DNA of 31,090 bases from an uncultured archaeon (GTDB lineage Archaea; Asgardarchaeota; Heimdallarchaeia; Heimdallarchaeales; Kariarchaeaceae), in the NCBI GenBank assembly GCA_964645535.1, contig CAZYCQ010000038.1, positions 1 to 31,090 of the forward strand, in the 5' to 3' direction. Both the position numbers and the translations under genes were made by a program. The notes beneath the pieces are model-generated. The model was not told where the DNA came from and did not search any database. It worked only from the letters and a program-made list of their open reading frames with translations. Each line of letters opens with the position of its first letter. Position 1 is the first letter of the stretch. Below are positions 1 through 31,090 of the stretch, piece by piece.

Positions 1-236
1 TCGGATTTGGCAGAATTATAGAGGAGGTCGGGCTGTCCAGAATGATTGAAGAGGTCGGGCTGTCCAGAATGATTGAAGAGGTCGGGCTGTCCAGAATGAT
101 TGAAGAGGTCGGGCTGTCCAAGGTGATTGAAGAGGTCGGGCTGTCCAAGGTGATTGAAGAGGTGGGATTGGAAAAACTTTTGGCGGAACTTAGCACTGAA
201 CAGAAAAAAATGCTGAAGGAACTACTTGATTCATAA
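1..236 (+). CDS. 3' end of a protein (runs off the left edge) with C-terminal 9-aa tandem repeats IEEVGLS[RK][MV]
   Basis: Frame is open from position 3 (GFGRI-IEEVGLSRM...) to TAA at 234-236, so the track ATG at 42 is internal to the repeats. Confidence 0.75.
   Translation, partial: GFGRIIEEVGLSRMIEEVGLSRMIEEVGLSRMIEEVGLSKVIEEVGLSKVIEEVGLEKLLAELSTEQKKMLKELLDS
18..179 (+). repeat. In-frame 27-bp tandem repeat, 6 units plus a partial unit at the edge
   Basis: Consensus attgaagaggtcgggctgtcca[ga/ag][a/g]tg at 18, 45, 72, 99, 126, 153; no spacers. Confidence 0.97.
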
Positions 237-530
237 TTAACGCATGTTTATTTATGCAAGTTTGAGTAGTTACATGTAGAAATTGAATGGGAAATGCAGT
301 GATCCACTCTTCTGAACGTTTTCAGATCGAGGAATCTTGTTGTATCTTCTTTTTTTTGAAAATCACCATTCTTGAAGTATAAGTGGAAATATAACGATGT
401 CCAGAATCAATGGATGCACTATCATCAAAGGACGTTGGGGGAAGAAAGGTAAGACATACTTTAGAAAGTCCGCAGTTTTGAGTAATTAACGATAGAATTC
501 TAAAAAAAGTGGTTTATGCATCTTGCCTTA

Positions 531-733
531 TCCATAAAATTATTTTGAATTTTGAAGTTGGAAAAATTGAATGAGCGAGTTCCCTACCAATCTTGGCAAA
601 AAATGAGATACAGAAGATTGTTGGATCTAGAATCTGGTGCATTAATTGCTGTCCCACTGGATCACGGATTTACGTTACCACCAATTCAAGGGGTCAACAG
701 GCTCAGCAAAACAGTTGATTCGGTTTCCAAGGA
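531..733 (+). pseudogene. Relic of a diverged aroA' promoter and 5' end
   Basis: ccataaaattattt at 532 matches 1832; ATG 571 matches ATG 1871 (offset 1300). Relic MSEFPTNLGKK/MRYRRLLDLESGALIAVPLDHGFTLPPIQGVNR vs intact MRFDLPNVGKQLRFRRLVDQESGAIIAVPMDHGFTLGPIKGVDR. 1-nt deletions near 600 and 727. Confidence 0.9.
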
Positions 734-955
734 TTTCTTAAAACGCATGTATCACAGTGGGTTCAAGGAGCAGCCATAGCAAATGTTATTGCACAATTTG
801 GTGCGCTTAGTGCGTCTGGAGGGGCAACGGCAGTCTTAAAAGCAGCACAGATAATTGCAATAGTGATGAGTGTATTATGGTGGCTGGCTGGTACTTGGAG
901 TGACCTGACGGACGAGGATGATGTCGCAAATATGCCTTCGTTTATTTGGGGTTAA
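734..955 (+). pseudogene. Start-less 3' fragment of an unknown hydrophobic Gly/Ala-rich protein
   Basis: Open frame FLKTHVSQWVQGAAIANVIAQFGALSASGGATAVLKAAQIIAIVMSVLWWLAGTWSDLTDEDDVANMPSFIWG*, joined to the aroA' relic at caagga. Confidence 0.5.
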
Positions 956-1055
956 TGCTATTAATTCATGGGGGAGAATACTATTATGCAATATTTTCGT
1001 AAAGACCACCATGGGTTCAATCATTGCCCGTTAGTAGGAAGGATTATCGTTTGCT

Positions 1056-1108
1056 AATAAAAAATTGGACAGCTCTGTCAGTTGATGACTGGTTTGTCCA
1101 TTTTTATT
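1056..1108. other. Imperfect inverted repeat/hairpin
   Basis: aataaaaaattggaca...gtca-gttga-tgac...tgtccatttttatt. Confidence 0.55.
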
Positions 1109-1121
1109 CCTGCACGGGAAC

Positions 1122-1163
1122 AGTTGCCCAATCTGCAAACAAAGCTTGGTCGTTGAGAATTGA
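1122..1163 (+). pseudogene. Relic of the 3' end of the Dna2-RING gene
   Basis: SCPICKQSLVVEN* vs intact SCPICKHSLVIED* (20234-20275), offset 19112. Confidence 0.85.
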
Positions 1164-1586
1164 GGTATCTATACATGTCCTTTCACCCGATATCCGTACG
1201 ATAATCCAATAGGTTCCCTTCAATCATCATGCATGACATTGCAGCATAGCCCTTTTGTCTTGCCTTAATTATAGTGGAACCATCTGCGGTAAGGAAAAAC
1301 AGCCGCCCGCCATTTGCAACAGGCTGTGTATCCTTTTCCGCCAAATCTACCAAAAAAATTCCACGTTATCGTTTATCTGATCCCAACCAAGCAACCGTCT
1401 ACCCTTTACCTGAGAATAGTCCACAGAGTCATCGAAGGAGGCACCTACAAGGCAAATTCGGATTTTTCCATCAAAACGGACAGTTGGGCTGGTTAGTATG
1501 CTCTTCAAGCAAGATTCGATGAGAGATAAGTAATCATTTTCTAGACGGGGTAACATCGCTTGACATTCTGGATCACCCTACCGAGC
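1150..1586 (-). pseudogene. purD: Relic of the 3' third of a diverged purD
   Basis: AR*GDPECQAMLPRLENDY...FDGKIRICLVGAS...QPVANGGRLF...MIEGNLLDYRTDIG*KD is colinear with 20262-20699. Trp->TAG at 1578-1580, Trp->TGA at 1183-1185, 1-nt frameshift near 1352. Confidence 0.93.
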
Positions 1587-1597
1587 GAAGGGCTAGC

Positions 1598-1780
1598 TGC
1601 GGTCACCAAAATGCAAAAACGAACCTCAAAGATTTGGAGGCAAAAATTGTTGATCTAATAGTTGATCAATTGGGGAGCTTCAAAAGACCAATAAAAGTCC
1701 TGTTCTTAGATCAGTTACCAAAGACGGTATCTGGAAAGCCCATTCGGAACCAGATCGCACCCCTTTTCCTTAATAAATAG
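1598..1780 (+). pseudogene. 3' fragment of an acyl-CoA synthetase (AMP-binding C-terminal domain)
   Basis: ...IVDQLGSFKRPIKVLFLDQLPKTVSGKPIRNQIAPLFLNK*, carrying the A10 motif LPKTxSGK; rest of gene absent. Confidence 0.8.
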
Positions 1781-1870: not shown

Positions 1871-2659
1871 ATGCGATTTGACCTGCCCAATGTTGGAAAG
1901 CAACTTCGATTTAGAAGATTGGTAGATCAAGAATCAGGCGCAATAATAGCAGTTCCAATGGATCATGGGTTTACACTGGGTCCAATTAAGGGGGTCGACC
2001 GAATTGCGGCAACAGCTGAGAAAGTCTACCAAGGGGGTGCCAGTGCCGTAATTGTCCATAAGGGCAATGTAACCCAATTGGCGAACGTCCCAAACTTAAG
2101 AGGGCTGATGATCCACATTTCAGCGTCAGTCAGTCTTTCACCCCATTCTGCTCAGAAAGTCTTGACTGCCAGTGTGGATGAGGTAGCAAGGTTGGGAGCC
2201 GATGGGGTCTCGGTTCATGTCAACATAGGTGCAACAGGAGACAAAGAAATGATCTCCGACTTGGGGATGGTAGCCGATGATGCCAATGCCCTAGGATTGC
2301 CGTTGTTGGCAATGATGTATGCCAGAGACGATAATGGAACTGATGACACGTCCGCAGAAACCTTGGCTCATATTGCAAGAATTGCACAGGAAGCGGGAGC
2401 CGACATCGTTAAGATCAATGCCACAGCAGATGGGAAGCGGTTTGACGAGGTAACACAGGGAATAGACATTCCGATTGTGATTGCAGGAGGTGCAAAGGCA
2501 GATGATTTTCAAGGCTTTCTCAACACTGTTGAACAATGCATCCTGCAAGGAGCTTCAGGTATTTCAATCGGAAGGAATATCTTCCAAGCAGACGATCCAG
2601 CAACAGCCACTGCTAAGGTCGTTGAGGTTGTCAGAAAAGCGATGAAGGAGAGAACATGA
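1871..2659 (+). CDS. aroA': 2-amino-3,7-dideoxy-D-threo-hept-6-ulosonate (ADH) synthase, DhnA-type class I aldolase
   Basis: PMDHG, ADGVSVHVNIG, GADIVK, AGG, GRNIFQ motifs; directly upstream of DHQ synthase II. Confidence 0.92.
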   Translation: MRFDLPNVGKQLRFRRLVDQESGAIIAVPMDHGFTLGPIKGVDRIAATAEKVYQGGASAVIVHKGNVTQLANVPNLRGLMIHISASVSLSPHSAQKVLTASVDEVARLGADGVSVHVNIGATGDKEMISDLGMVADDANALGLPLLAMMYARDDNGTDDTSAETLAHIARIAQEAGADIVKINATADGKRFDEVTQGIDIPIVIAGGAKADDFQGFLNTVEQCILQGASGISIGRNIFQADDPATATAKVVEVVRKAMKERT

Positions 2660-9355: not shown

Positions 9356-9479
9356 CAAAATAGCAACTAATCTAAAAATTTGAGCCGATAACCAATAATA
9401 GACAATATTTTTGACCAAAATGGAAAAAATCAAACATTATTTAAGGAAAAATATTAATATTTTTATGGGGGGGGGAATT

Positions 9480-11054
9480 ATGCATTCATATAAAATAATT
9501 TCGTGTATAAAGTTGTGGATAATTGTGGGACTAATGATTAACCCAAACGCACTTTTGATTGGAGAAACTACGACTTTCTTAGATCATGAAAGAAAAACTA
9601 GTGGCAGGATGGTCAATGATTTTCAACAACTAAACCTAAATAATATTGAACAAGAACCTACCTTGCTCCAAAACAATAAGATATCTTCACAGGCAATAAC
9701 AACCTTTTCGAGTTCACCTTTCTTTTCACCCCATCAATACGGAGGGGTGGATAATGATTTCAGTAACGACAAGGCATTTTTTCTTACAAAAGAAGGAACC
9801 TTTTTTCCAAAAAAATCATATTCAAAATTAGCATTTTTCACACCACGTGCCGATTTCATCAAAGCTAGAATTTTGGCAGTTAATGAGGTTACCGGACGGG
9901 TTCTGAGGGTATATCAGGGTTCAGACCCAAATAACTTGGAATTGGAATACCAAACAATAGTTCGTCCGAATCAAGAAAATTTTGTTTCGATTAACTTTAA
10001 CACTCCCCTCACCAACTTGTACGTCGTCTTTGAAATTTATTTCGGGAACTACGCTGAAAGGGCATGGATGCTGGAATGGGTCTACTTTAAGAATGATACC
10101 CGTAGCAACTATCAGCAATTTTTCCCATTGGACTATCGTTCAAAAATTGAGACTCAATTTATTGGCGGGGAAGCAACCCTTCTTTCATTTGATCTGGAAC
10201 AATATTTAGACACATATGATCGTCTGGTATCAGTATATGTGGACGGAATTTTAAAAATACCAGAAACAAAAACAATTAATGGAAAAATGAGCATTTCTAG
10301 TTTTTATTTAGGCAATTATATCGAAAGAAGCATTCATAATCTAACCATTCAAATTCGATCGGGAAGTTACATGGAATTCGGTTGGGCTTTGAAATCGTTG
10401 CGTATCAATTATCTAGGGGCTTATGTCGAGATTGACCAAATGGAAGGATATAGTGTTTCAACAGACATATTCGACTATATAGAAGACTATTTTGAAACAA
10501 ATGGATACGAACGTATCAATATTTTCCTTTCTGACACGTCCCTCCCAGTTATTGAGAGAACATCGGCTGCAAATTTAAGAAACTATTACGAAACTTATTC
10601 CTTAAAAAATACGCTTACAAAACATCGGTATGTATTGTTAGGAAAATATGCCGACAGTTCTGGAGCTTTAGGGTTTGTACCGGTATCAAAGGATACGGAT
10701 AATTATTACATTGCAAACTATGCGTTTATTGCCATACAGGAAATTAAGGATTTGAGGAAATTGCCAAGTGGTTGGAAATGGTTCTTCTACTCAAATGATA
10801 AGGAAAACATTATGAGTACCATAATGCATGAATTGGGTCACACGCTTGGTATTGTGAAAATTCGAAATGGAGGGGAATACTATGAATGGGGAAACAGGGA
10901 TGATTCTGTAATGAATACATTGAACTTAGATAATTCTCGACCCTACCCTTATTATTCCCAATTTTGGTGGACAGGAGATGGAAGATGGTGGGACTTGAGA
11001 ACCCAATTTGATGCCACCACAGTGGTAAAACCAATTGGAGAGGTTGAAGTATGA
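9480..11054 (+). CDS. Secreted zincin-type metalloprotease-like protein with two repeated beta-rich domains
   Basis: Hydrophobic N-terminus, HELGHTLG zinc motif, SVMN Met-turn-like motif; start could be 9465 or 9480. Confidence 0.7.
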   Translation: MHSYKIISCIKLWIIVGLMINPNALLIGETTTFLDHERKTSGRMVNDFQQLNLNNIEQEPTLLQNNKISSQAITTFSSSPFFSPHQYGGVDNDFSNDKAFFLTKEGTFFPKKSYSKLAFFTPRADFIKARILAVNEVTGRVLRVYQGSDPNNLELEYQTIVRPNQENFVSINFNTPLTNLYVVFEIYFGNYAERAWMLEWVYFKNDTRSNYQQFFPLDYRSKIETQFIGGEATLLSFDLEQYLDTYDRLVSVYVDGILKIPETKTINGKMSISSFYLGNYIERSIHNLTIQIRSGSYMEFGWALKSLRINYLGAYVEIDQMEGYSVSTDIFDYIEDYFETNGYERINIFLSDTSLPVIERTSAANLRNYYETYSLKNTLTKHRYVLLGKYADSSGALGFVPVSKDTDNYYIANYAFIAIQEIKDLRKLPSGWKWFFYSNDKENIMSTIMHELGHTLGIVKIRNGGEYYEWGNRDDSVMNTLNLDNSRPYPYYSQFWWTGDGRWWDLRTQFDATTVVKPIGEVEV

Positions 11055-12208
11055 AGAAAAAACAATTCCTCGTCCCTTTTCTCATTCTCACCATCTTTTT
11101 TGGAATTTCAATGCCTGCATCTGTAGGTCTTGATAAACGTCCCCTTAATCTACGTTCACAGGTGGCAATTTGGGTAAATGGAACAGACTTGGCCATTAGC
11201 ATTGGCGCGGATCTTGAGCCTGCAATGTATTTGTGGAATGCAACGGATGGGATGGCGGTTGATACTCCAAAGGTTAGGTTTTCAATCCCTCCGCGATCCT
11301 ATATCCTCGATCTTAACCCAACTGGAACAGCATCAGTGGGAGGTACAACAGAGGTCATCATGTGGAAATTTTCAGATAGCTCCGTTAAAAAACTTCCAAT
11401 ATATGAATCTCTTAATGTTAGCAATATTCTCTTCACTTCAGTGGCATGGGGGGACAATATCTATTTGGGAACTGATGGATTGGGATATAGTATCCAACAG
11501 GACGCCAATGAGCCTGTTCAGTATCTGACCAATGAATCAGAAAGTGTGGTTCTGCAATTTGATCCCACCGACCTCCAATTGACAGGCGTATTCAATGTCG
11601 GCAGCGCAGTTACCTCTCTTGAAGCATTAGCAGATGGTGGATTGGCTATAGGACTAAAGAATGGTTCTCTTCTTGTTCGAGACAATGAAATATTTTCTAG
11701 CTATTCTTACAAATCTACAATCAACGTGATCAAATGGCAAAACAATGCACTTTATGTTGCAGAGGGAAATAGGGTTCATATAATTGATAATGAAGATGTT
11801 CAAACAATACAAACTCGAAATGAGATAACTGCAATGGTTCCCTCACCTGATGGTCAAAAAATCGCAGTGGGATATACCAATGAGACAGTTGATGTCTACT
11901 TTCTTAATAACACAATGCTTTGGTCTAAATCATTTGGACATTTTGAAGTGTTTCAGAACCCGATTACATATCTCGATTGGAAAGACGATAAACTGCTTAT
12001 CTCAAAAAAACTCGAAATGGCTACATCCCATGATGCAAATACAGGAACCCTTCTTTCGCAAATTGGAATAGATACCAATATTACCATAATGGCTTTAGAA
12101 AACCATTCTTCGAATAATGAAATCACGTATTATCCCAATCTTTTCTTTGCAATCATTTTCATCTTGATAAACAAACGAAACAAAAAGTTACGGGTTGAAA
12201 GGAGTTAA
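11051..12208 (+). CDS. Secreted, C-terminally anchored WD40-like beta-propeller protein
   Basis: Signal peptide MKKKQFLVPFLILTIFFG; blades VTSLEAL..LAIG and ITAMVPSPDGQKIAVG; short C-terminal hydrophobic stretch plus basic tail; ATGA overlap with upstream gene. Confidence 0.7.
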   Translation: MKKKQFLVPFLILTIFFGISMPASVGLDKRPLNLRSQVAIWVNGTDLAISIGADLEPAMYLWNATDGMAVDTPKVRFSIPPRSYILDLNPTGTASVGGTTEVIMWKFSDSSVKKLPIYESLNVSNILFTSVAWGDNIYLGTDGLGYSIQQDANEPVQYLTNESESVVLQFDPTDLQLTGVFNVGSAVTSLEALADGGLAIGLKNGSLLVRDNEIFSSYSYKSTINVIKWQNNALYVAEGNRVHIIDNEDVQTIQTRNEITAMVPSPDGQKIAVGYTNETVDVYFLNNTMLWSKSFGHFEVFQNPITYLDWKDDKLLISKKLEMATSHDANTGTLLSQIGIDTNITIMALENHSSNNEITYYPNLFFAIIFILINKRNKKLRVERS

Positions 12209-12275
12209 GGAAAAAAATTAGCGACTTGTTCAAAAACTCCACTCAATCTTAAAAAGACCATATTTATCAAGGTAT

Positions 12276-12662
12276 ATGGACAATTACATTCAAATGATCA
12301 AAAACGAAATTGAAGATCTACATACATTTTTCATGAATTGGTTCAATGGGAAACTAAGTGATGAGCAATTTATCAGAGTTGAGCAAGCCTTGGATAAAAA
12401 TTTCGAATTGATTACCCCGCGAGGAGAGCATTTCAGGAGGGATGAGATAGTGGATCTGATTAGAAAAGCAAAAGCAGGAGACCCCTTGAGAAAGATATGG
12501 ACAGAATTTATTTCCTGCAAGAAATTTGGGGAGATTGTGGTTGCTCTTTATTATGAATTCCAAGATTTGGGAGATAAACAGACTAAAAGATTGAGCACGG
12601 CAATTTTCTCAATCAAGCCAAATCTGAAGTGGTTGCATGTCCATGAGACCTGGGCTGATTGA
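12276..12662 (+). CDS. NTF2-like / DUF4440-like protein
   Basis: LHTFFMNWF, FELITPRG, RLSTAIF, WLHVHETW pattern. Confidence 0.7.
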   Translation: MDNYIQMIKNEIEDLHTFFMNWFNGKLSDEQFIRVEQALDKNFELITPRGEHFRRDEIVDLIRKAKAGDPLRKIWTEFISCKKFGEIVVALYYEFQDLGDKQTKRLSTAIFSIKPNLKWLHVHETWAD

Positions 12663-13200
12663 ATTCGGAAGAATAATCTTCAAGAAGGCAGATCATGTCA
12701 ATAAAGGAACGTATGTATTGTTTATCGAGATAATGAAGAACATTGATGTCGTGATAGGGAAACAGAATAAAGGTCACCCACTTAAATTCCCCGAAGGTCG
12801 ATATTTATACGTCGGTTCTGCTACCGGTACAACCTCCACATCCCTTTCTCAGAGATTGGCTCGTCATTGCATACGAAGGATTGGAGCACCACAACCGGTT
12901 TTGAAAGATCTTGCGGAGGTTATTGGGAAGCTGGGTTTTCCTTTCAGAATTCCAAGATCGAAGAGTTTGAGATGGCATGTAGATTACTTGCTTGAAGATA
13001 CAAGGGTCACCCTTACAAACATCTTCTTTGAGATGAGTCAAAGAGGAAATGAAAGAGAATGGGTTGATTTGTTATGGAATTCAGACCATGTCGTCCCTTT
13101 TGGAAAGGGTTTTGGAGGATCGGATGACAAAGGAAGAACACATCTTTTTCAGATGAAAGAGCAAACCAATATGAAAAAACTGCTTGATGAGTTTAGATAG
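12637..13200 (+). CDS. DUF123 GIY-YIG (Uri) nuclease family protein
   Basis: KGTYVL, YLYVGSA, RLARH, RWHVDYLL, GFGGSD; start uncertain. Confidence 0.8.
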   Translation: MSMRPGLIEFGRIIFKKADHVNKGTYVLFIEIMKNIDVVIGKQNKGHPLKFPEGRYLYVGSATGTTSTSLSQRLARHCIRRIGAPQPVLKDLAEVIGKLGFPFRIPRSKSLRWHVDYLLEDTRVTLTNIFFEMSQRGNEREWVDLLWNSDHVVPFGKGFGGSDDKGRTHLFQMKEQTNMKKLLDEFR

Positions 13201-13238
13201 AAGCATGACCGGAATACATGAACCAGAAAACAACTGGA

Positions 13239-14184
13239 TCAAACGTTAAATTCGACTAGCTGTTTAACAATTTGTGGAAGTGAGGAGGTTTTTGCTACAA
13301 GTGCAAAAAATGTAAAATTGTTTTTGATATCCTGAACATCCCTCTTCAATATATGCAATCCATATAGATTTGCAGCCATTTCACTGCATAACGCGGCAGA
13401 ATTTTGCGGAGAATATTCAGCGATCATTTTTGCGGCTCCAGCGGTGTCATGATAGGATATTCCTCGTATGCCATGTTTGGTTAGGAAGTTTTTGCATTGT
13501 CGAAGGGCTTCAGGATGGGAATAAACTGTTTCAATCTGCCCAATGTCTTCAATATGGTTTGGTACTGCAAGCATATGCCTGATCTTTATGGGAAATTTGT
13601 ACAGCACAACATGTTCAATGTGATCTGCAATCTTTTGCCCTAAATTGACAGTTCCCGCAATTGTATTGAAAAAAGGCAAAATTGCAAGATCGGCAATGTT
13701 CTTGTCCAACTTTTCCTTGACATCATCGAATTGCCAGGAAGGGATTGCAGTTGCTTTTGGAAAGACCGAACTGATGGCAAGATGGCTGAATGCACCCAAT
13801 TCGCCTTGAAATGTGATTCTCAGTTTGGCATTGTTTGGAAGCTGCAATAGAAAAGGCATTGTGAAATCAATGGCATTGGAAAAGTTTGGCATATTCCCGT
13901 TGCCAATAATCTTTGCCTGGTGCGTAATTGAGAGGGAAAACATGATATGATAGATTGACTGTAAATAGTTCCAAGGGATGGCCTGTTTTTCAGACATTTC
14001 TCGGAGTGTTTGCAGAATCCATTTTTCCCTCTCCAAATCCCAAAGCTGGATACTGTCTTTTGCTTTGACTTCTGCAATCAACCTGACAGTTTCCATTCGA
14101 TCGGCAATAAGGTCAATGATGTTTTTGTCTATGGTGTTGATTTTATTTCTTAGATCTTTTAATTGTGATGCGGAAAATACGCAT
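13239..14184 (-). CDS. pheA: Chorismate mutase / prephenate dehydratase without ACT domain; anomalous 5' end
   Basis: CM helix LKDLRNKINTIDKNIIDLIADRM lies in frame upstream of the track ATG 14096; PDT motifs FQGELGAFSHLA, YSHPEALRQC, DTAGAA; ATG 14184 is out of frame by 1 nt. Confidence 0.85.
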
Positions 14185-14222
14185 TCCTCCTAACTTTTAC
14201 CGTTTTTAAGCAAATATAAAGG

Positions 14223-15163
14223 TTAGTGATTTTCATTGGCATATTTCAAACCTTTCAAAAAAGACAAGACGATGCTTGATGCAAAAAGGAACAGGCCAAT
14301 GACCATTATGGATAGTAAAACGAGGTTCAGCAAGATTCCAGATCCAAGAAGTGAAACAACCAATCCTGCCACCAAAAAGAAGACTGCGGGTTTCACCAGC
14401 AGTCTTGGAGAAACGGAAGCTTTTTGGGATTGGGCAGGAGGAACAAAAACAAAACCAAGAATCCCTACGCCATAAAAAAAGAAAATGATGGAAAGTGTGA
14501 CAAGGTCTACAAGTTTCTGTCCTCTTAGAAGGGGAAATGTGTAAATATAAGGAAAAAGCATCACGAGGAAAGTGATAAACAAATAGAAATTGGAGAGATA
14601 GAGATCTTCAGTTGAAAATTTCCGTCCATACTTTTTTAATATCAAAAGGAAAAGAAGAGGTACCCCAATTGAGGAAAAGGAAGATATCAGAAATCCGCTT
14701 GGATCAAATGAAAGATATGAAGAAAGTATTACCGCTCCGAAGAATGAAATGGGATAATAAACAATAGAAGGAACAAATGTTTGCCCAGTTCCCAGCAATT
14801 CGAGTGTTGCCAAAGGAAGGATAAAGGACCGGATGCCAGAAAAGGACAAGAATGATGAATTCTGCAATGGCTATTTGGTGGTAGGAACCTAAAATGGGAT
14901 TTGTATTTATATAGCCAGTTACAATGACTTTTGTTATCCAAGCTTCATAAAGACCATACACAATACCCAAAAAGTATAGGTGAAGCAATGAGGTTCGTCT
15001 ATATCTCAGTGCCACGTTATAGAAGAATAATATGAGACAGGTAAATGATCATTGTGATGAAGATTGATTCGGGAACGAACAGCCAGAACGGAGAAGATCC
15101 AGAAAAGACTTCTGCGAATAACATGGTGAAACTGGCAAATAAAAGTGCAACAATTATTTTCAT
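14223..15163 (-). pseudogene. Polytopic membrane protein split by two frameshifts
   Basis: MKIIVALLFASFTMLFAEVFSGSS... / ...GLYEAWITKV...FWHPV / FILPLATLELLG... read in successive frames, with shifts near 15025 and 14825. Confidence 0.7.
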
Positions 15164-15199
15164 CACATCAACAAAACAGTGAGACTATTTGTTTGTTTT

Positions 15200-16420
15200 T
15201 CAGGCATTGGTGTTTGATTGGTAAAAGAATTGGTCAATCTCGGTTTCCGAAAGACCAAGCATAAGAAGGACAGATTTAAGGTGAGTTTGCCCGATTTTTC
15301 CGTCAGCTACCTCTGAAAGGATCTCTTTGCTGTTGAATCCGATACCCAATCCAGAATTTTTTATCATCGAGATGTCATTGCTTCCATCTCCAATTGTAAC
15401 AACCTCGTCAGGATGTATGTTAAGTTGGTGGGCAAGCTCCTGAACAATCTCCCATTTTCCGTTGGCATCAATGATGGAACCTGTTATGTTTCCAGTGACA
15501 ATCCCGTCACGGATTTCCAAAGTATTGCCAAAAGAATAATCCAATCCCAATTTTTCTTTGACTGCATCAGTAAAATAGGAGAACCCAGATGATACAATGC
15601 CAATTTTCCATCCCATTGCCTTCAATTCTGAGATAAGCTCCTCAGCACCAAAAGTTAGTTCCAGATTATTTGCTATTTGCTTGAGCATTGCCTCGGGAAT
15701 ACCTTGCAACAGTCTTGCCCGTTGGATCAATGATTCTGAGAAGTCCATGTCTGTTGACATGGCGAGTTCAGTGGCCTCTGCCATTTCCTGCTCTTTTCCA
15801 GCCAGTTTTGCAGCCTCCACAATTGTTTCACCATTGATCAAGGTTGAATCCATGTCAAAGATAATGAGTTTCTTGTTTTTTCTATAGAGACGTTCCTGTT
15901 GGAGGGTCATTGAAAGCCCCATCGCCTCACAAACCTGTCGGATATCATTCCTCAATTTTTTGATGTCCGTAACTGAAGAGCAATCAATAAGGAACTGATT
16001 ATAGATAAATCCCTCATTGACCTTCACTTGTATTGTATCAATATTGACTTTGTTTTCAGTCAAGACTGCAGATATTTGGTGAAGTAATCCAATTTGATCA
16101 CGACCGACAATGGTGAGAACATAAAGATCTCGTAATCGAGCCCTCTGTCCTTTTTCATATCTGTGGAGGTCAACATTCAGGGAGTGAACACGACCGATTT
16201 TTCTCAATTGCAGGGCAATTCGATCTTCATTCAGTTTTGATTCCTTAAGATCTACCAGAAAAGTAATTGAGAGATATCCCCTTAGGACATTCTGTTTTAC
16301 ATCTAGAATATTGATGGAATTATCACTGAAAAATTGGCAGAAGTGGACAAATATGCCAGGATGATCTGCACCATTGACTTGAACAATTCTGAGCGTGCCA
16401 GATCCATTTTTCGATTCCAT
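15200..16420 (-). CDS. serB: Phosphoserine phosphatase with two N-terminal ACT domains
   Basis: GADHPGI and GRDQIGL ACT starts; HAD motifs DMDST, SSGF, GDGSND. Confidence 0.93.
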   Translation of the reverse strand: MESKNGSGTLRIVQVNGADHPGIFVHFCQFFSDNSINILDVKQNVLRGYLSITFLVDLKESKLNEDRIALQLRKIGRVHSLNVDLHRYEKGQRARLRDLYVLTIVGRDQIGLLHQISAVLTENKVNIDTIQVKVNEGFIYNQFLIDCSSVTDIKKLRNDIRQVCEAMGLSMTLQQERLYRKNKKLIIFDMDSTLINGETIVEAAKLAGKEQEMAEATELAMSTDMDFSESLIQRARLLQGIPEAMLKQIANNLELTFGAEELISELKAMGWKIGIVSSGFSYFTDAVKEKLGLDYSFGNTLEIRDGIVTGNITGSIIDANGKWEIVQELAHQLNIHPDEVVTIGDGSNDISMIKNSGLGIGFNSKEILSEVADGKIGQTHLKSVLLMLGLSETEIDQFFYQSNTNA

Positions 16421-16606
16421 TCTCTTAATTGAAGCAAGGGGATTCTCTTATTTTACTTTTCTGAAATACATGGATGATAGAAAACATGCTTTATGCGAAT
16501 ACCATATTAAAAGACAATCATAATAATTTTCCATAATTTGGGGGATTCAGCATTTGGAACTAGTTAGTTGGAAAAATTATATAAAATGCAGGAAGTGATC
16601 AACTTA

Positions 16607-17245
16607 ATGCCAAATAAATCGGTCCGGCTGGATAACCTTCCGAAAGGTCAAATTAAGGACAAGATTGAGCAAGCTCTTGCTGAGAAGGGGATGAAAGCGG
16701 ATATTGTTGATTTTACGGAAAACAAGTACTCATGGACCGTCAAGAAAAATTTTGTTACTACTTTTCTAATTTTGGAACGTAAGCCATCACGTCCACTTTT
16801 TGTTAATGTTATCACAGACCACGTACAATTTCCGGCAGCTACGTCTGGGTTGGTGGTCAAACAAAGGAAACAGGGACAACAGCGACGGCCTGTCTGGATT
16901 TATTACCTGCTTTGGTTCGCGTTACCCGTCATTTTTTCAGTTCTTGCTACTTTTTTCAGCATTCTTACCACAACCCAACTGCCAACATTTCTCGGCATTG
17001 CCCTTTTGATTTCGGCCATCATTTTCCTTGTGGGTAGGTATACGTGGGCAAAGTTTCAAAAGAAGGAATTGTTGAAGCTTGACCGACAGGTATTTGATAC
17101 AGCAGTAGAAGTTCTTGAACAGCTCTCCAATGAAACATTGCGATCAGTTCCCACAAAGAAATGTTGGAACTGCTTTGCAGAGGTTCCAACATCAAATGAG
17201 TACTGTGAACAATGCGGCAAAAGTCAGTTCAATATTGACAACTGA
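16607..17245 (+). CDS. Two-TM membrane protein with C-terminal zinc ribbon
   Basis: Two hydrophobic helices; CWNC-x10-CEQCG; start could be 16568, 16586 or 16607. Confidence 0.75.
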   Translation: MPNKSVRLDNLPKGQIKDKIEQALAEKGMKADIVDFTENKYSWTVKKNFVTTFLILERKPSRPLFVNVITDHVQFPAATSGLVVKQRKQGQQRRPVWIYYLLWFALPVIFSVLATFFSILTTTQLPTFLGIALLISAIIFLVGRYTWAKFQKKELLKLDRQVFDTAVEVLEQLSNETLRSVPTKKCWNCFAEVPTSNEYCEQCGKSQFNIDN

Positions 17246-17284
17246 AGCTTAATATTGAAATAATGATAGGTTATAGATTTCATA

Positions 17285-20275
17285 TTGAAAGGACAATTCG
17301 TTTTATTGGATGTGGAAGGTACAACAATACACTGTACAGATAGAAGTGGTAATTCCCATACATTTGAGATATTGGATCCGTGGAAACAATTTTTGCCTTT
17401 TCTACAGAAGTTTGACATTATCTACGTCCACTCAGAGGACGGGACAATTGGCGAAGAAGGAGTTTTGGTAATCGAACCTCATTTTCTGGTAGCGGTTACG
17501 GGGGTGATTGATGCCATTTCCTGTCCCAGAAAAGTCTATGTCCGAACCATGGGGGCAGAAAAAGTAGTTGATGTTGATTTGCTTAGACGAATGACACAAG
17601 GGAATCTGCTCCATGACGTATTTTCCTATAAGATAGCAAGAGGGATGGAGGTGGACAGGGCAATTGAGCTAGCTTTGGAGGACAATAAGCTTGACCTGTT
17701 TGTCATTGATACAGATGAGGAAGAAGCCCGGCAATACCTTGAAAGAGATGCAGGGGCCATGGAAGGAGTGCAAGCACTAGGTCTGACGGAACTTGACTGC
17801 CAGAACTGGAATTATGGATTACATGGAAAGTTTGACGGTGTTGCAGAGAATCGAATTATAGAGCTCAAATCCTCAAGAATACCGACAGGCACCCCTTGGC
17901 CGAACCACAACATCCAGATGAACATCTACCTACAAATGGTTGAAGAGGTGGGAAAGCACCACGGAATGGTGTTATATGTCAATGAAGGACAGATGGGAAT
18001 GGCATTGCCTACCCAATGGCCCCTGAACAAGACGATTATTGGAAGAAACTATGCATATCTTGTTCAGACAGGAAGGCTCGTACCCGATGTTCTCAGAGGG
18101 GAGCAAGCAAAGGAATGCAGAAATTGTTATGTGAAAGATGGATGCTGGAAGCTGTGTGCAGGATTGGAAACTCAAAGGGATTGTGAAAAATGTCCTCAAA
18201 ATTCATTTTGTACCAAGGAAGCATGGAACCCTCACGCACAAGCATATTTCCAACATTTCACAAAGGCACTTCTTGATGAAGAAAAGGAAGGCCAAGCAGA
18301 ACTTTATTCCTATTCAAGGATAGCTTCCACTGATGAGGTGGTCAAAGAGCAGCTAGTTAAGGATGGGTATGCCATTATTGGCGAAAAAAAACTGAAAGAA
18401 TGGGAAAGTGAAAATCAAGGAAGAATTCTCACCAGATATCGGCAAAGATCAGAAATGCCAAGGTTTAGGAAAGGAGATTTGGCGATGGGATATGATCTTG
18501 CCAAACCACACGATTCCATTACTATGTTTTTCTCATTGAACATTGTCGATTTGGATGCCGAAACCGTAACAGTTGCTTCTGTCAACCCATTGCCGGAGCG
18601 TCTGGGAATTGTTCCCTCACGATATTCTTCAGGGATGCGTGGAGGGAGAAAGGCAGTTTTCTATGCAGTGGAAAGTCGAAATAGGCTTCTACATACCATC
18701 ATCGAATCCTTTGCGAAAGGATGGGCTGAATTGCCACCCCTGTCGGGTCATGTAAAAATACGACAACCACTCTTTAGATACAACAAGTACCAAGAGGAAG
18801 CGATCACCCATGCCCTCGCAACTCCTGATTTCTATCTCATTCAAGGTCCAGCAGGGACTGGGAAAACCAGTGTCATTGTTGAATTGGTCAATCAACTGCT
18901 CAAGCAGGGGAAAAAGGTGTTATGCGCGGCATACACCAATATGGCTGTCGACAGCATTGGCGAAAAACTGAAAAGGCAGGGAATTGAATTTTTGAGATTG
19001 GGAGGAGAGCTTTCAATGAGTGAAAACCTTAGGGAAAACTCACCACTTCAAAAGGAAGAGCTTTTCAAGGCAATGCTTGAAAAAAGGGGATCATTGGTTG
19101 TCCTTTCCACTACAACCACCATAGGGAAGGATCTGTATGAACAGGTTCTTTTTGATTATGTCATACTTGATGAGGCGGCACAAATGACGGAACCCGACGC
19201 GATCAGACCAATATTGAGAGGCGTGAGAGCAGTTCTTGTGGGAGATCATGCACAGCTTCAACCAATTGTCACGTCAGCAAAAGCCCAAGAAGCAAACTTG
19301 CATATTTCCCTTTTTGAACGGCTAGTAACGGCATTCCCAAATCGGTTCACACAGCTTAGGGAACAGTACAGAATGAATGATGAAATACTTCGATTCCCGA
19401 ATATCCATTTCTATCAGGGGAGACTGAGATCAGCAACCTCTGAAATTGCAAACCAGACCCTCCCTCCATTCCAAGGAGAATTCATTGACAATACACCCTA
19501 TCAAGTGATATCCATTGACTATCCTGGCCGGAATGAATTGCTTCAGGCAAACAAAGGAGAAATACTTGCTACACTTTACTGCATTCGAGATATTTTGAAA
19601 GGAGGCACTAAAATTCAGGATATCGGCATTGTTGCCCCTTTCAGGGCGCAAGTAGCAATGCTGAGGAGTATCCTTCCCTATCCCGACATCCAAATAGATA
19701 CTGTCGATCGGTATCAAGGATCGGAAAAGGAAGTAATCCTATTGTCAACAGTAACCTCCCACCAAGTACCCCTTCTTACTGATGAGAAAAGAATCAATGT
19801 AGCATTGACTCGTGCCAAGAAAAAAATGATTGTTCTTGTTACGAATCCAAAGCTCGATAAACCAACAACCTTTGTAGACGTGATTGCAAAAGAGGCCTTT
19901 GGGAGAGAAAGGGGGATCAAAGTGACGATAGATGAATTGCAGGCAGTCGGCATTGAAAAGGCAAGGAAATGGCAATCATTCATTTTTGAAAGAAGCAAGC
20001 AAGGGGTACCACCACCCATACCATCTTTCCTCTTTGTTCAAGAAGACCGATTTGCAGGGGAAAGATTCCCATCACAGCTCTTCTTTGGAACCATTCAATT
20101 GGAGGTTAGGAAACCAAGGGAAGCACGCCATTGCATATTTTGTTACCAAATTGTCGAGGAGGGAATTGAGTGCTTAGGTTGTCAATATTGGTTCCATGAA
20201 AATCATCTCATGCAATGGTTGGATATGTCGTCAAGCTGTCCGATTTGCAAGCATAGCTTAGTCATTGAGGACTGA
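17285..20275 (+). CDS. Dna2-like Fe-S PD-(D/E)xK nuclease + SF1 (Upf1-like) helicase + C-terminal RING finger
   Basis: Nuclease: SCPRK, GNLLH, GLHGKFD, ELKS, QxxxY, CxxCx5C. Helicase: GPAGTGKT, TNMAVD, DEAAQ, GDHAQL, QYRM, VDRYQGSE, NVALTRAK. C-terminal Cys/His finger. TTG start. Confidence 0.9.
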   Translation: MKGQFVLLDVEGTTIHCTDRSGNSHTFEILDPWKQFLPFLQKFDIIYVHSEDGTIGEEGVLVIEPHFLVAVTGVIDAISCPRKVYVRTMGAEKVVDVDLLRRMTQGNLLHDVFSYKIARGMEVDRAIELALEDNKLDLFVIDTDEEEARQYLERDAGAMEGVQALGLTELDCQNWNYGLHGKFDGVAENRIIELKSSRIPTGTPWPNHNIQMNIYLQMVEEVGKHHGMVLYVNEGQMGMALPTQWPLNKTIIGRNYAYLVQTGRLVPDVLRGEQAKECRNCYVKDGCWKLCAGLETQRDCEKCPQNSFCTKEAWNPHAQAYFQHFTKALLDEEKEGQAELYSYSRIASTDEVVKEQLVKDGYAIIGEKKLKEWESENQGRILTRYRQRSEMPRFRKGDLAMGYDLAKPHDSITMFFSLNIVDLDAETVTVASVNPLPERLGIVPSRYSSGMRGGRKAVFYAVESRNRLLHTIIESFAKGWAELPPLSGHVKIRQPLFRYNKYQEEAITHALATPDFYLIQGPAGTGKTSVIVELVNQLLKQGKKVLCAAYTNMAVDSIGEKLKRQGIEFLRLGGELSMSENLRENSPLQKEELFKAMLEKRGSLVVLSTTTTIGKDLYEQVLFDYVILDEAAQMTEPDAIRPILRGVRAVLVGDHAQLQPIVTSAKAQEANLHISLFERLVTAFPNRFTQLREQYRMNDEILRFPNIHFYQGRLRSATSEIANQTLPPFQGEFIDNTPYQVISIDYPGRNELLQANKGEILATLYCIRDILKGGTKIQDIGIVAPFRAQVAMLRSILPYPDIQIDTVDRYQGSEKEVILLSTVTSHQVPLLTDEKRINVALTRAKKKMIVLVTNPKLDKPTTFVDVIAKEAFGRERGIKVTIDELQAVGIEKARKWQSFIFERSKQGVPPPIPSFLFVQEDRFAGERFPSQLFFGTIQLEVRKPREARHCIFCYQIVEEGIECLGCQYWFHENHLMQWLDMSSSCPICKHSLVIED

Positions 20276-21575
20276 GAATTCTAGAAAGATCCCTCCATCC
20301 GATATCTGTTCGAAAATGGAGTAGATTTCCTTCAATCATTAAAGAGGACATGGCAGAATATACCTTCTTTCGTGCTTCAACAATATTGGAACCGGCAGCC
20401 ACCAATGAAAAGAGTCGACCACCATTAGCCACTGGTTGCCCTTCCTGTTCCGCCAATCCTGCGGAAAAAAACAGAATGTCTTCTTCAAGGGTATCCAGAC
20501 CCAGTAACCGCTTGCCTTTGACAATGGAATAATCGACAGGATAACCGAAGGATGCCCCAACAAGGCAGATTCTGGTTTTTCCATCGAATTTTACAGATTG
20601 GGTATCCAATTTCCCTTCCAGACAGGAGGTGACCAAATTGAAATAATCGGTTTCAAGACTTGGAAGGATGGCCTGACATTCAGGATCACCCCATCTTGCA
20701 TTGTATTCAATTGCGTACATTCCCTTAGATGTAACAATTCCACTGAAATAGAGAATGCCAATGTAAGGAATACCTTCTTTTTCCATGTTCTTGATTACTG
20801 GAGCTATGAAATCCTCAATGATTTGCTTGTCCAAATCTTCAGTCACGGAAGTGGGAGCGACAACACCCATTCCCCCAGTTTGCTCGCCAAGATCATGATC
20901 AAGCTGTCGTTTATGGTCTTGGGCAGATATCAACGGAAGGAAATGAATGCCGTCACTGATGGCATAGAATGAGAATTCCTCCCCTTCCAAACCCTCTTCA
21001 ATCACAAATGTCTTGCCTGCCTCTCCAAAGGTATCCATTTTCTGTATTGCCAGCTTTGCTTCCTCTAGAGAGGTGGCCTTCAAGGCACCTTTGCCTGCTG
21101 CAAGACCGCTTGCCTTGATGAAAAGAGATTTTGAAGGGTTCTGTGAATATTCCCGCTCAACAAATTCCATGGCAGAGGTTTTTTCAGAAAATACATGAAA
21201 TTCAGGAGAAGGTATGCCATGTCGTTTCATGAACTGGCGAGCCCAAGCCTTGTCCCACTCAATGCGGGCAGCGGCTTTGGTTGGACCAAATACACGAAAA
21301 CCGGCTTTTGTTAACAGATCAACGGTTCCAGCTGCCAAAGCATCATCCTGTGCTACATCAATCAAGTCAGGCCTGTGCTTTTCAGCAATTCGAACCATCG
21401 AGGTTGCATCCTTCAAGGAACAATCAGGATCGATTTCAAGGCCTTCCGTGGAAATTTGCATCCAAGAATTTCCGGGAGCCACAATCACTTTGTTTACGTG
21501 GGGGCTTTGCAGATAGGTGACTGCAAGGGCGTGTTCTCTTGCCCCACTTCCAAAAATTAAGACTTTGTTGGTCAT
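20262..21575 (-). CDS. purD: Phosphoribosylamine-glycine ligase
   Basis: GSGAREHA, FGPTKAAARIE, GLAAGKG, QDHKR, TGGMG, EYNARWGDPE. Confidence 0.97.
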   Translation of the reverse strand: MTNKVLIFGSGAREHALAVTYLQSPHVNKVIVAPGNSWMQISTEGLEIDPDCSLKDATSMVRIAEKHRPDLIDVAQDDALAAGTVDLLTKAGFRVFGPTKAAARIEWDKAWARQFMKRHGIPSPEFHVFSEKTSAMEFVEREYSQNPSKSLFIKASGLAAGKGALKATSLEEAKLAIQKMDTFGEAGKTFVIEEGLEGEEFSFYAISDGIHFLPLISAQDHKRQLDHDLGEQTGGMGVVAPTSVTEDLDKQIIEDFIAPVIKNMEKEGIPYIGILYFSGIVTSKGMYAIEYNARWGDPECQAILPSLETDYFNLVTSCLEGKLDTQSVKFDGKTRICLVGASFGYPVDYSIVKGKRLLGLDTLEEDILFFSAGLAEQEGQPVANGGRLFSLVAAGSNIVEARKKVYSAMSSLMIEGNLLHFRTDIGWRDLSRILSPQ

Positions 21576-30717: not shown

Positions 30718-31090
30718 ATGGCGGGCACGGTAGCAGAACCATACGCACGACGTAGCACACCACTTTACATGGTTCCGATCATTGCATTGGGATTTGCAAC
30801 CACGGCATTGACTTGGACAATTTTCAACATTGCGATACCAGTGTATCTTCAAGACGTGTATCAAATCTCCCTAGGTTTGACAGGATTTATCATGACTTGG
30901 GACAACATCATTGCATTCTTTTTGCAACCGTACATTGGTTCGCTTAGTGACAGGACACGAACGCGGTTTGGAAGAAGGATGCCGTATATCATAGTTGGAG
31001 TCATTTTAGGCGCGGGTTTCTTTTACCTGATTCCATATGCCAAGGAGTTCCCATTGTATGTGTTCCTTGGAACCATTGTCCTGTTCAATC
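30718..31090 (+). CDS. MFS sugar transporter (GPH/SLC45-like), 5' part; runs off the right edge
   Basis: Not in the ORF track. MAGTVAEP...IMTWDNIIAFFLQPYIGSLSDRTRTRFGRRMPYI (MFS motif A). Confidence 0.9.
   Translation, partial: MAGTVAEPYARRSTPLYMVPIIALGFATTALTWTIFNIAIPVYLQDVYQISLGLTGFIMTWDNIIAFFLQPYIGSLSDRTRTRFGRRMPYIIVGVILGAGFFYLIPYAKEFPLYVFLGTIVLFN

Follow-up and report, generated by a model that had tools for sequence, protein, structure and literature searches.

Relics of aroA' and purD in front of the intact aro-to-pur block of a Heimdall-group Asgard archaeon: possible scars of imported homologous DNA

How did broken pieces of aroA' and purD come to lie together in about 1 kb of DNA, immediately ahead of a gene block in which both genes are intact? 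The question was raised by the 31,090-bp window analysed here, which is the entire contig C38 of a metagenome-assembled genome (MAG; 3.6 Mb, 176 contigs, 89% complete) of an Asgard archaeon. According to the original prediction, a second, long-diverged version of the block had been taken up from a relative, had stood in tandem with the intact version and had been eroded by large deletions, so that a xenologous replacement, or a regain of prototrophy, was caught in place. The genome under study (G000) was compared with a set of 12 genomes of its family, among them G002 (a congener), G001 (another species) and G003. Closer relatives (X2, X3 and P0124) were found in a large protein collection and were compared as proteins only; X2 is P0002 (10,949-bp contig), and X3 is P0003 plus P0123 (221,774-bp Logan contig). 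The search for relatives was performed with the full-length intact genes as queries, and the relics were then compared with the proteins obtained; the more distant matches carry the names Heimdallarchaeota and Kariarchaeaceae. The features of the window are presented in Table 1.

Table 1. Gene relics, joint and intact genes of the 31,090-bp window
Feature	Position	Strand	Details
Multi-copy 310-aa protein, C-terminal part	3..236	+	27-nt tandem-repeat tail; runs off contig start
G001-type acs end and acs-aroA' spacer	463..570	+	Last 7 codons of acs and stop (483-485), then spacer
aroA' relic	571..733	+	54 codons of 262, ends ~733; 1-nt deletion in A-run 598-603
3' end of unrelated gene	731..955	+	74 codons and stop; multi-copy membrane-protein family
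Dna2-like helicase relic	1108..1163	+	Last ~18 codons, RING CPIC motif, stop
purD relic	1153..1595	-	Last ~146 of 437 codons
Joint J3	1596..1607		purD-internal (- strand) against acs-internal (+ strand); purD homology to ~1595, acs from ~1607
acs (acyl-CoA synthetase) 3' fragment	1607..1780	+	Last ~56 codons and stop; joined to intact aro operon
aroA', intact (2-amino-3,7-dideoxy-D-threo-hept-6-ulosonate synthase, ADH synthase)	1871..2659	+	Pfam DeoC, E 1.5e-43
aro operon, archaeal type			aroA', DHQS-II, aroD-E, GHMP-type shikimate kinase, EPSP synthase, chorismate synthase, asd (Pfam)
Dna2-like nuclease-helicase, intact	17285..20275	+	C-terminal RING finger
purD, intact	20262..21575	-	First pur cluster gene reading rightwards; convergent to Dna2-RING gene
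pur cluster beyond purD			purF, purN, folD, purM-like (AIRS domains), purL, purC-purS (Pfam)

BLASTN of positions 1-1870 against the rest of the window matched 587-698 to 1887-1999 (73.5% identity over 113 nt, E 6e-13), within intact aroA', the first gene of the aro operon and the working counterpart of the relic. A search of the whole genome lengthened this match to 532-698 against 1832-1999 (offset 1300; ~69% nucleotide identity). The homology that had been predicted for the aroA' promoter and 5' end at 531-733 is real, but comparison with a congener moves its start to about 463. Positions 463-570 were ~90% identical at the nucleotide level to the DNA upstream of the intact aroA' of G001 (G001:C169), and this similarity of ~110 nt of non-coding DNA before the relic was found with G001 only. 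The box CCATAAAATTATTT at 532-545 was the sole part of the relic leader in common with the intact copy (1832-1845) and with G002. This 14-nt box lies ~25-40 nt before the aroA' start, is the sole upstream element present in all four aroA' leaders and is likely to be a BRE/TATA promoter. No family was matched in an Rfam search of positions 1-2200, so the ~90% conserved leader shared with G001 is not explained by a known RNA.

The aroA' relic was 83% identical in amino acids to G001 and 60% to the intact copy. Its similarity to G001 was uneven, with 91% nucleotide identity and a dS of 0.22 over codons 1-23, against 66% and a saturated dS over codons 24-54. This step, at about position 640, is the footprint of a recombination event and makes the mosaic nature of the relic directly visible. 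Through the loss of 1 nt from the A-run an ATGA overlap has arisen, and a 58-codon ORF from the ATG at 603 stays open (598-779). Behind the retained promoter, this ORF could still give a transcript and a peptide.

The second relic was recovered in the same BLASTN search, with 1122-1578 matching 20234-20691 (66.9% over 459 nt, E 5e-33, offset 19112-19113). TBLASTX likewise confirmed the two homologous patches. The convergent Dna2-RING/purD 3' junction, predicted to be repeated at 1122-1586, was thus confirmed, with a full extent of 1108-1595, and both relic matches agree with the prediction that order and orientation are those of the intact genes. The helicase gene is present in the relic as had been claimed, but only with its last ~18 codons; it ends ...SCPICKQSLVVEN before the stop, compared with ...SCPICKHSLVIED before the stop of the intact gene, and it overlaps the end of the purD relic as the intact pair does. 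Two Trp-to-stop changes were found in the purD relic (TGG to TAG at 1578-1580 and TGG to TGA at 1183-1185), together with a 1-nt deletion near 1350, replacement of a conserved GYP by DDS and loss of the stop codon. The expected mixture of nonsense and 1-nt deletion lesions was therefore observed, with two stops and one deletion in the purD relic and one deletion in the aroA' relic. With significant homology, truncation and disabling lesions, both relics pass as pseudogene remnants. A scan of JGI metagenomes with the relic ORF detected just distant purD genes (30-45% identical). One protein that had co-clustered with a 56-aa relic ORF (P0180, 445 aa) turned out to be unrelated, and its clustering an artefact.

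The purD of the genus of G000 and of G008 shared just ~30% identity with purD from the remaining genomes of the family and order, and the same purD type was 52-56% identical to purD of DPANN-named archaea (Nanoarchaeia, Diapherotrites, Aenigmarchaeota, Micrarchaeota) and of other Asgard archaea. On these identities, the order appears to hold two purD types side by side. The Dna2-RING gene is kept in G002 (62% amino-acid identity, full length) and in G003 (49%), and its convergence with purD is constant in G000, in G002 and in the relic.

The DNA between the two relics did not consist of shortened block genes throughout. The gene tail at 731-955 was 49% identical in amino acids to the C-terminus of a 365-aa protein encoded elsewhere in the genome (C8:28118-29212), and no homolog was detected in the aro-pur loci of G001, G002 and G003. 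The claim that ~19 kb had been squeezed into ~1 kb stands to the extent that the two ends of the block are repeated, but the interval is filled in part by this unrelated tail. To the right of the purD relic, joint J3 sets the inside of purD against the inside of acs, which in G001 and G002 is intact and directly precedes aroA'. J3 is thus of the illegitimate-recombination type or of the tandem type. The acs fragment beyond it was 41-44% identical in amino acids to the acs C-termini of contig C14 and of G002. The acs tails of C14, of this fragment, of G001 and of G002 were 32-56% identical all round, and the native tail was not singled out by the comparison. Two acs 3' ends therefore lie at left-hand breaks in the window, one with 7 codons at ~463 (G001 type) and one with 56 codons at ~1607.

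A full-length acs was present at the end of contig C14 (C14:53372-54823). The synteny upstream of this gene (C14:47890-54986) was G002-like, with genes for a response regulator, an aspartate kinase and a 930-aa protein before acs. About 110-163 nt past acs, C14 carries the N-terminus of the multi-copy gene whose matching C-terminus opens C38. The full copy of this gene is at C74:10721-11653; N-termini end contigs C14 and C18, and C-termini open C38 and C29. C18 and C29 carry equivalent ends, and the homologs of their neighbours are on different contigs of G002. C14 probably runs on into C38; this is one of two pairings, and it is backed by synteny. The break in the assembly at the start of C38 is probably explained by the multi-copy gene. 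No Pfam match was obtained for its 310-aa product. In this family (~310 aa) the N-terminus (MAWDASFKNFLKT...) is conserved and the tail is built of 9-aa (27-nt) tandem repeats. The family occurs also on C88, C131 and C10 and recurs at contig breaks; its distribution suggests that it may be mobile or selfish. At the other end of the window, the final 55 nt (31036-31090) are identical to C171:1-55, which resembles a k=55 overlap in the assembly graph, and from this terminal overlap C171 looks like the direct neighbour of C38.

Because the contig opens in a multi-copy repeat gene and its end is 0.5-1.6 kb away from the relics, the first ~1.6 kb might come from another organism and have been wrongly joined to the rest. 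Such an assembly or binning artefact is highly improbable. The relics are themselves broken and truncated, and hence are borne as relics by some genome; a chance join would not bring a purD relic into exact contact with the acs tail whose syntenic place is in front of aroA'; and no repeat of more than ~17 nt was found by BLASTN between 1-1870 and the rest of the contig. In addition, NCBI nr lists an exact copy of a 69-aa relic ORF (1350-1556, minus strand), which is assigned to a contig of 14,986 bp. On a contig of equal length, aroB' was identical at 332 of 333 positions, unk128, DUF123 and pheA were exact, and aroK fell in the same 90%-identity cluster but was non-identical. The relic ORF and the genes from aro to pheA thus appear to share one contig in a second assembly of the same species, and this counts against a chimeric assembly. 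The second assembly would be independent of the first, judged by the amino-acid differences alone. A genome-wide screen identified 47 non-coding segments with gene fragments, nearly all from multi-copy families. Only in C38 was a housekeeping gene recognised beside its intact copy, so such relics are no general habit of this genome.

The kind of divergence between relics and intact genes was then considered. The purD relic and intact purD were ~66-67% identical in nucleotides and about 61-63% in amino acids, with 40, 29 and 77 differences at the first, second and third codon positions, a dN of 0.27 and a saturated dS (>2). A similar profile (45, 30 and 83) was obtained for intact purD and its ortholog in G002. 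For the aroA' relic and the intact copy, dN was 0.31 and dS 1.9. The segment of intact purD was also mutated at random to the nucleotide divergence of the relic in 2000 simulation runs. The amino-acid identity retained was on average 40% and at most 49%, compared with the 63% observed, which was reached in none of the 2000 runs; third-position differences had a mean of 49 and a maximum of 65, compared with 78 observed. Neutral decay of a local duplicate is ruled out by this simulation and by the codon-position bias. The codon-position profile and the simulation together indicate that purifying selection acted on both versions during most of their divergence. The lesions that disabled the relics came late, on top of this functional divergence. 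Many of the differences are synonymous, as had been expected, and the accompanying view, that no recent duplication is involved and that the two versions were once functional and diverged long ago, agrees with this profile and with the lateness of the lesions.

The affinities of the relics were examined in maximum-likelihood (ML) trees, which were built from short alignments (54 codons for aroA' and 146 codons for purD). The aroA' relic was sister to G001 (UFBoot 99). Sisterhood of relic and intact copy was rejected (AU p=0.0003), as was placement of the relic within the clade of G000, X3 and P0124 (AU p=0.01). The purD relic was sister to X2/P0002 (UFBoot 92, RELL 0.94), and its amino-acid identity was highest with X2 (68%), followed by the intact copy (61%) and G001 (46%). 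Sisterhood with G001 (p=0.0014) and placement outside the clade of X2, G000, X3 and G002 (p=0.0003) were both rejected. Two alternatives were close to the threshold, namely the relic with the intact copy (AU p=0.064) and X2 with the intact copy (AU p=0.051), so the placement of the purD relic is less than decisive. On these trees, both relics are xenologs of the working genes, and different donors are indicated for the two. The trees support the predicted uptake from a relative, as they make both relics foreign to the intact genes of G000. They contradict the prediction of a single diverged block as the source, because the aroA' relic goes with G001 and the purD relic with X2, and the tests for the two genes conflict.

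These trees also bear on the possibility that the block was duplicated in tandem long ago within this lineage, that both copies stayed functional and that one was lost recently. A junction of the tandem type is present, in which the end of a 19,113-bp unit meets its start, and grouping of the purD relic with the intact copy fell short of formal rejection, at the AU value given above. The copies of such a duplication should be each other's closest relatives. For aroA' this was rejected, and the non-coding DNA before the relic is ~90% identical to that of G001; for purD, X2 was favoured. The dS between the copies is saturated, and a 19-kb direct repeat of housekeeping genes would be expected to be unstable. 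An old duplication within the lineage is accordingly given very little credence here.

Which of the two versions is native was assessed from synteny and from the trees. G002 was colinear with the window (acs/aroA' ... asd ... DUF123-unk225-Dna2-purD-purF ... purC), and identity to G002 and to G001 was even over the intact block and its right flank (~46-84% amino-acid identity to G002). Intact purD was 77% identical to X2 and 69% to X3, intact aroA' was 90% identical in amino acids to X3 (P0123) and 86% to P0124, and both genes grouped with the nearest relatives, X2 and X3, in the ML trees. Because of this colinearity, even identity and grouping, the intact block was taken as the resident. On synteny and these two gene trees, it looks native and the relics look imported. 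A gene in use that derives from a distant lineage, as in-situ xenologous displacement would leave, was not observed. The idea of a xenologous replacement or of regained prototrophy finds no support, as the block looks native and has the ancestral synteny. With regard to gene content, the middle of the block (9400-17250) is variable, with a GC content of 0.36-0.40 compared with 0.43-0.46, and includes pheA and a serB-like gene. Relative to G002, the window has pheA, a 214-aa ORF and the serB-like gene as additions between DUF123 and unk225, and the interval from asd to DUF123 also differs from G002 in gene content.

The structure of the locus is symmetric, and the reverse history can also be considered, in which the relics are the native genes and were supplanted by an imported block, the intact one, that extends from the acs tail to purD. 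The same junction would result if the import had its anchor in the pur genes and its illegitimate joint in native purD. A native copy would also be in keeping with the sister relationship of the purD relic to X2, which is the nearest relative known. It is intact aroA', however, that has the high identity to X3 and P0124, while the aroA' relic goes with the more distant G001; moreover, the intact block has the gene order of G002 and shows no step in identity at its right flank. The reverse history is for these reasons regarded as improbable.

The history that is tentatively preferred, with a confidence a little below the halfway mark, is that homologous DNA was imported at least twice beside a native block and left its scars stacked at positions ~463-1607. 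The origins of the relics are discordant, and at least two events are needed. The donors would be other species of the same genus of Heimdall-group Asgards, of whose DNA the dead distal ends remain. The imported DNA would have settled in the 3' end of acs, immediately before the native aro-to-pur block. Each import most likely involved a homologous crossover, placed within acs or upstream of it, and a single illegitimate joint, in the manner of homology-facilitated illegitimate recombination (HFIR). It would have severed the tail of the resident acs, and a partial second copy would have stayed behind beside the native genes. The older import, from an X2-like donor, would have extended as far as purD (a span of ~19 kb), and its far end would be the Dna2/purD relic, joined to the native acs tail. 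The younger import, from a G001-like donor, would be represented by the relic of acs tail, promoter and aroA' 5' end. The redundant foreign copies may then have been lost by deletions and point decay while the native block stayed in use. The position of all left-hand breaks in an acs tail is what would be expected of repeated imports that are anchored by homology within acs or upstream of it and end in illegitimate joints. The load of lesions (two stops and one frameshift in the 146 codons of the purD relic, one frameshift in the 54 codons of the aroA' relic) is in keeping with a right-hand event that is older than the left-hand one.

Alternatively, one complete diverged copy of ~19 kb, from the 3' end of acs to the 3' end of purD, might have stood in tandem, after a single import or a Campbell-type integration, and been reduced to ~1.1 kb by two large internal deletions. 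The relics follow the intact block in order and orientation, as the remains of one collapsed copy would, and positions 1596-1607 form the exact junction between the end and the start of the 19,113-bp unit. The middle of the block differs among G000, G001 and G002, and the corresponding variable part of the donor could have supplied the gene tail at 731-955; one event with a mosaic donor is simpler in the number of events. This account is nevertheless considered unlikely. The aroA' relic falls outside and the purD relic inside the clade of G000, X2 and X3, so that a mosaic donor or later overwriting would be needed; the step from 91% to 66% identity at ~640 shows extra recombination; and the third acs end (463-485) demands a further event if C14 joins C38. 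The predicted tandem arrangement of two versions consequently survives in part, since J3 is what a tandem would leave, but a single block is contradicted by the trees.

The scars would record how foreign DNA enters the chromosome in the Asgard archaea, in which gene exchange is little documented. The case offers datable joints, at least two congeneric donor species and a possible import of ~19 kb. Its outcome is the opposite of xenologous replacement, as the native housekeeping genes won and the imports decayed. It is conceivable, though more doubtful than not, that the acs tail, into which the relics of at least two donor species are cut, is a recombination hot spot and that Heimdall-group Asgards take up and integrate chromosomal DNA, once over ~19 kb, by homologous and illegitimate recombination combined, even from species with saturated synonymous divergence. 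A literature search found no published description of such recombination scars in Asgard archaea. If the hot-spot reading is true, the locus would offer a first mechanistic trace of how chromosomal DNA passes between species in those archaea that are closest to eukaryotes.

Scars of this sort are well known in bacteria. The scar described here shows neither a new system nor a new function, and it can be set beside four known situations. One is HFIR, which is known from bacteria with natural transformation and from conjugation in E. coli (PMC3240628) and was studied by de Vries & Wackernagel 2002 (PMC122324) and Prudhomme et al. 2002 (PMC122325), both as cited in PMC5361080. As in HFIR, foreign DNA would have been fixed by a homolog through a homologous anchor and an illegitimate joint, with truncation of resident genes. 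The aroA' and purD trees place the inserted DNA in other lineages, and a non-homologous joint (J3) is present beside DNA that is homologous to the insert. The experiments that demonstrated HFIR used bacteria and small fragments, whereas here a comparable process is proposed from sequence for an Asgard archaeon, with one import probably of ~19 kb.

Orphan T6SS immunity genes and effector 3' ends of Vibrio cholerae, as well as orphaned 3' regions of rhs genes, have been attributed to sequential displacement (PMC5361080). There as here, distal fragments from different donors are stacked next to a functional copy, and each is ascribed to a new import with a conserved upstream anchor. The T6SS and rhs arrays consist of polymorphic toxin and immunity genes, and the orphans are selected; the relics described here derive from housekeeping biosynthesis genes, are decaying and give no sign of use. 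In-situ displacement of genes in operons by xenologs (Omelchenko et al. 2003, Genome Biol 4:R55, as cited in PMC1779527) is similar in that the xenologous version of an operon gene comes in exactly where the resident gene lies. At the present locus the displacement seemingly failed, as the gene in use goes with the nearest relatives and the foreign versions died. Tandem duplication or Campbell-type single-crossover integration would share the end-to-start joint between the inside of purD and the inside of acs, but differs in that the copies here are not each other's closest relatives and their dS is saturated. The locus is thus a known kind of recombination scar, or xenolog relic, which stands out by the span it implies, by its at least two donors and by its Asgard host.
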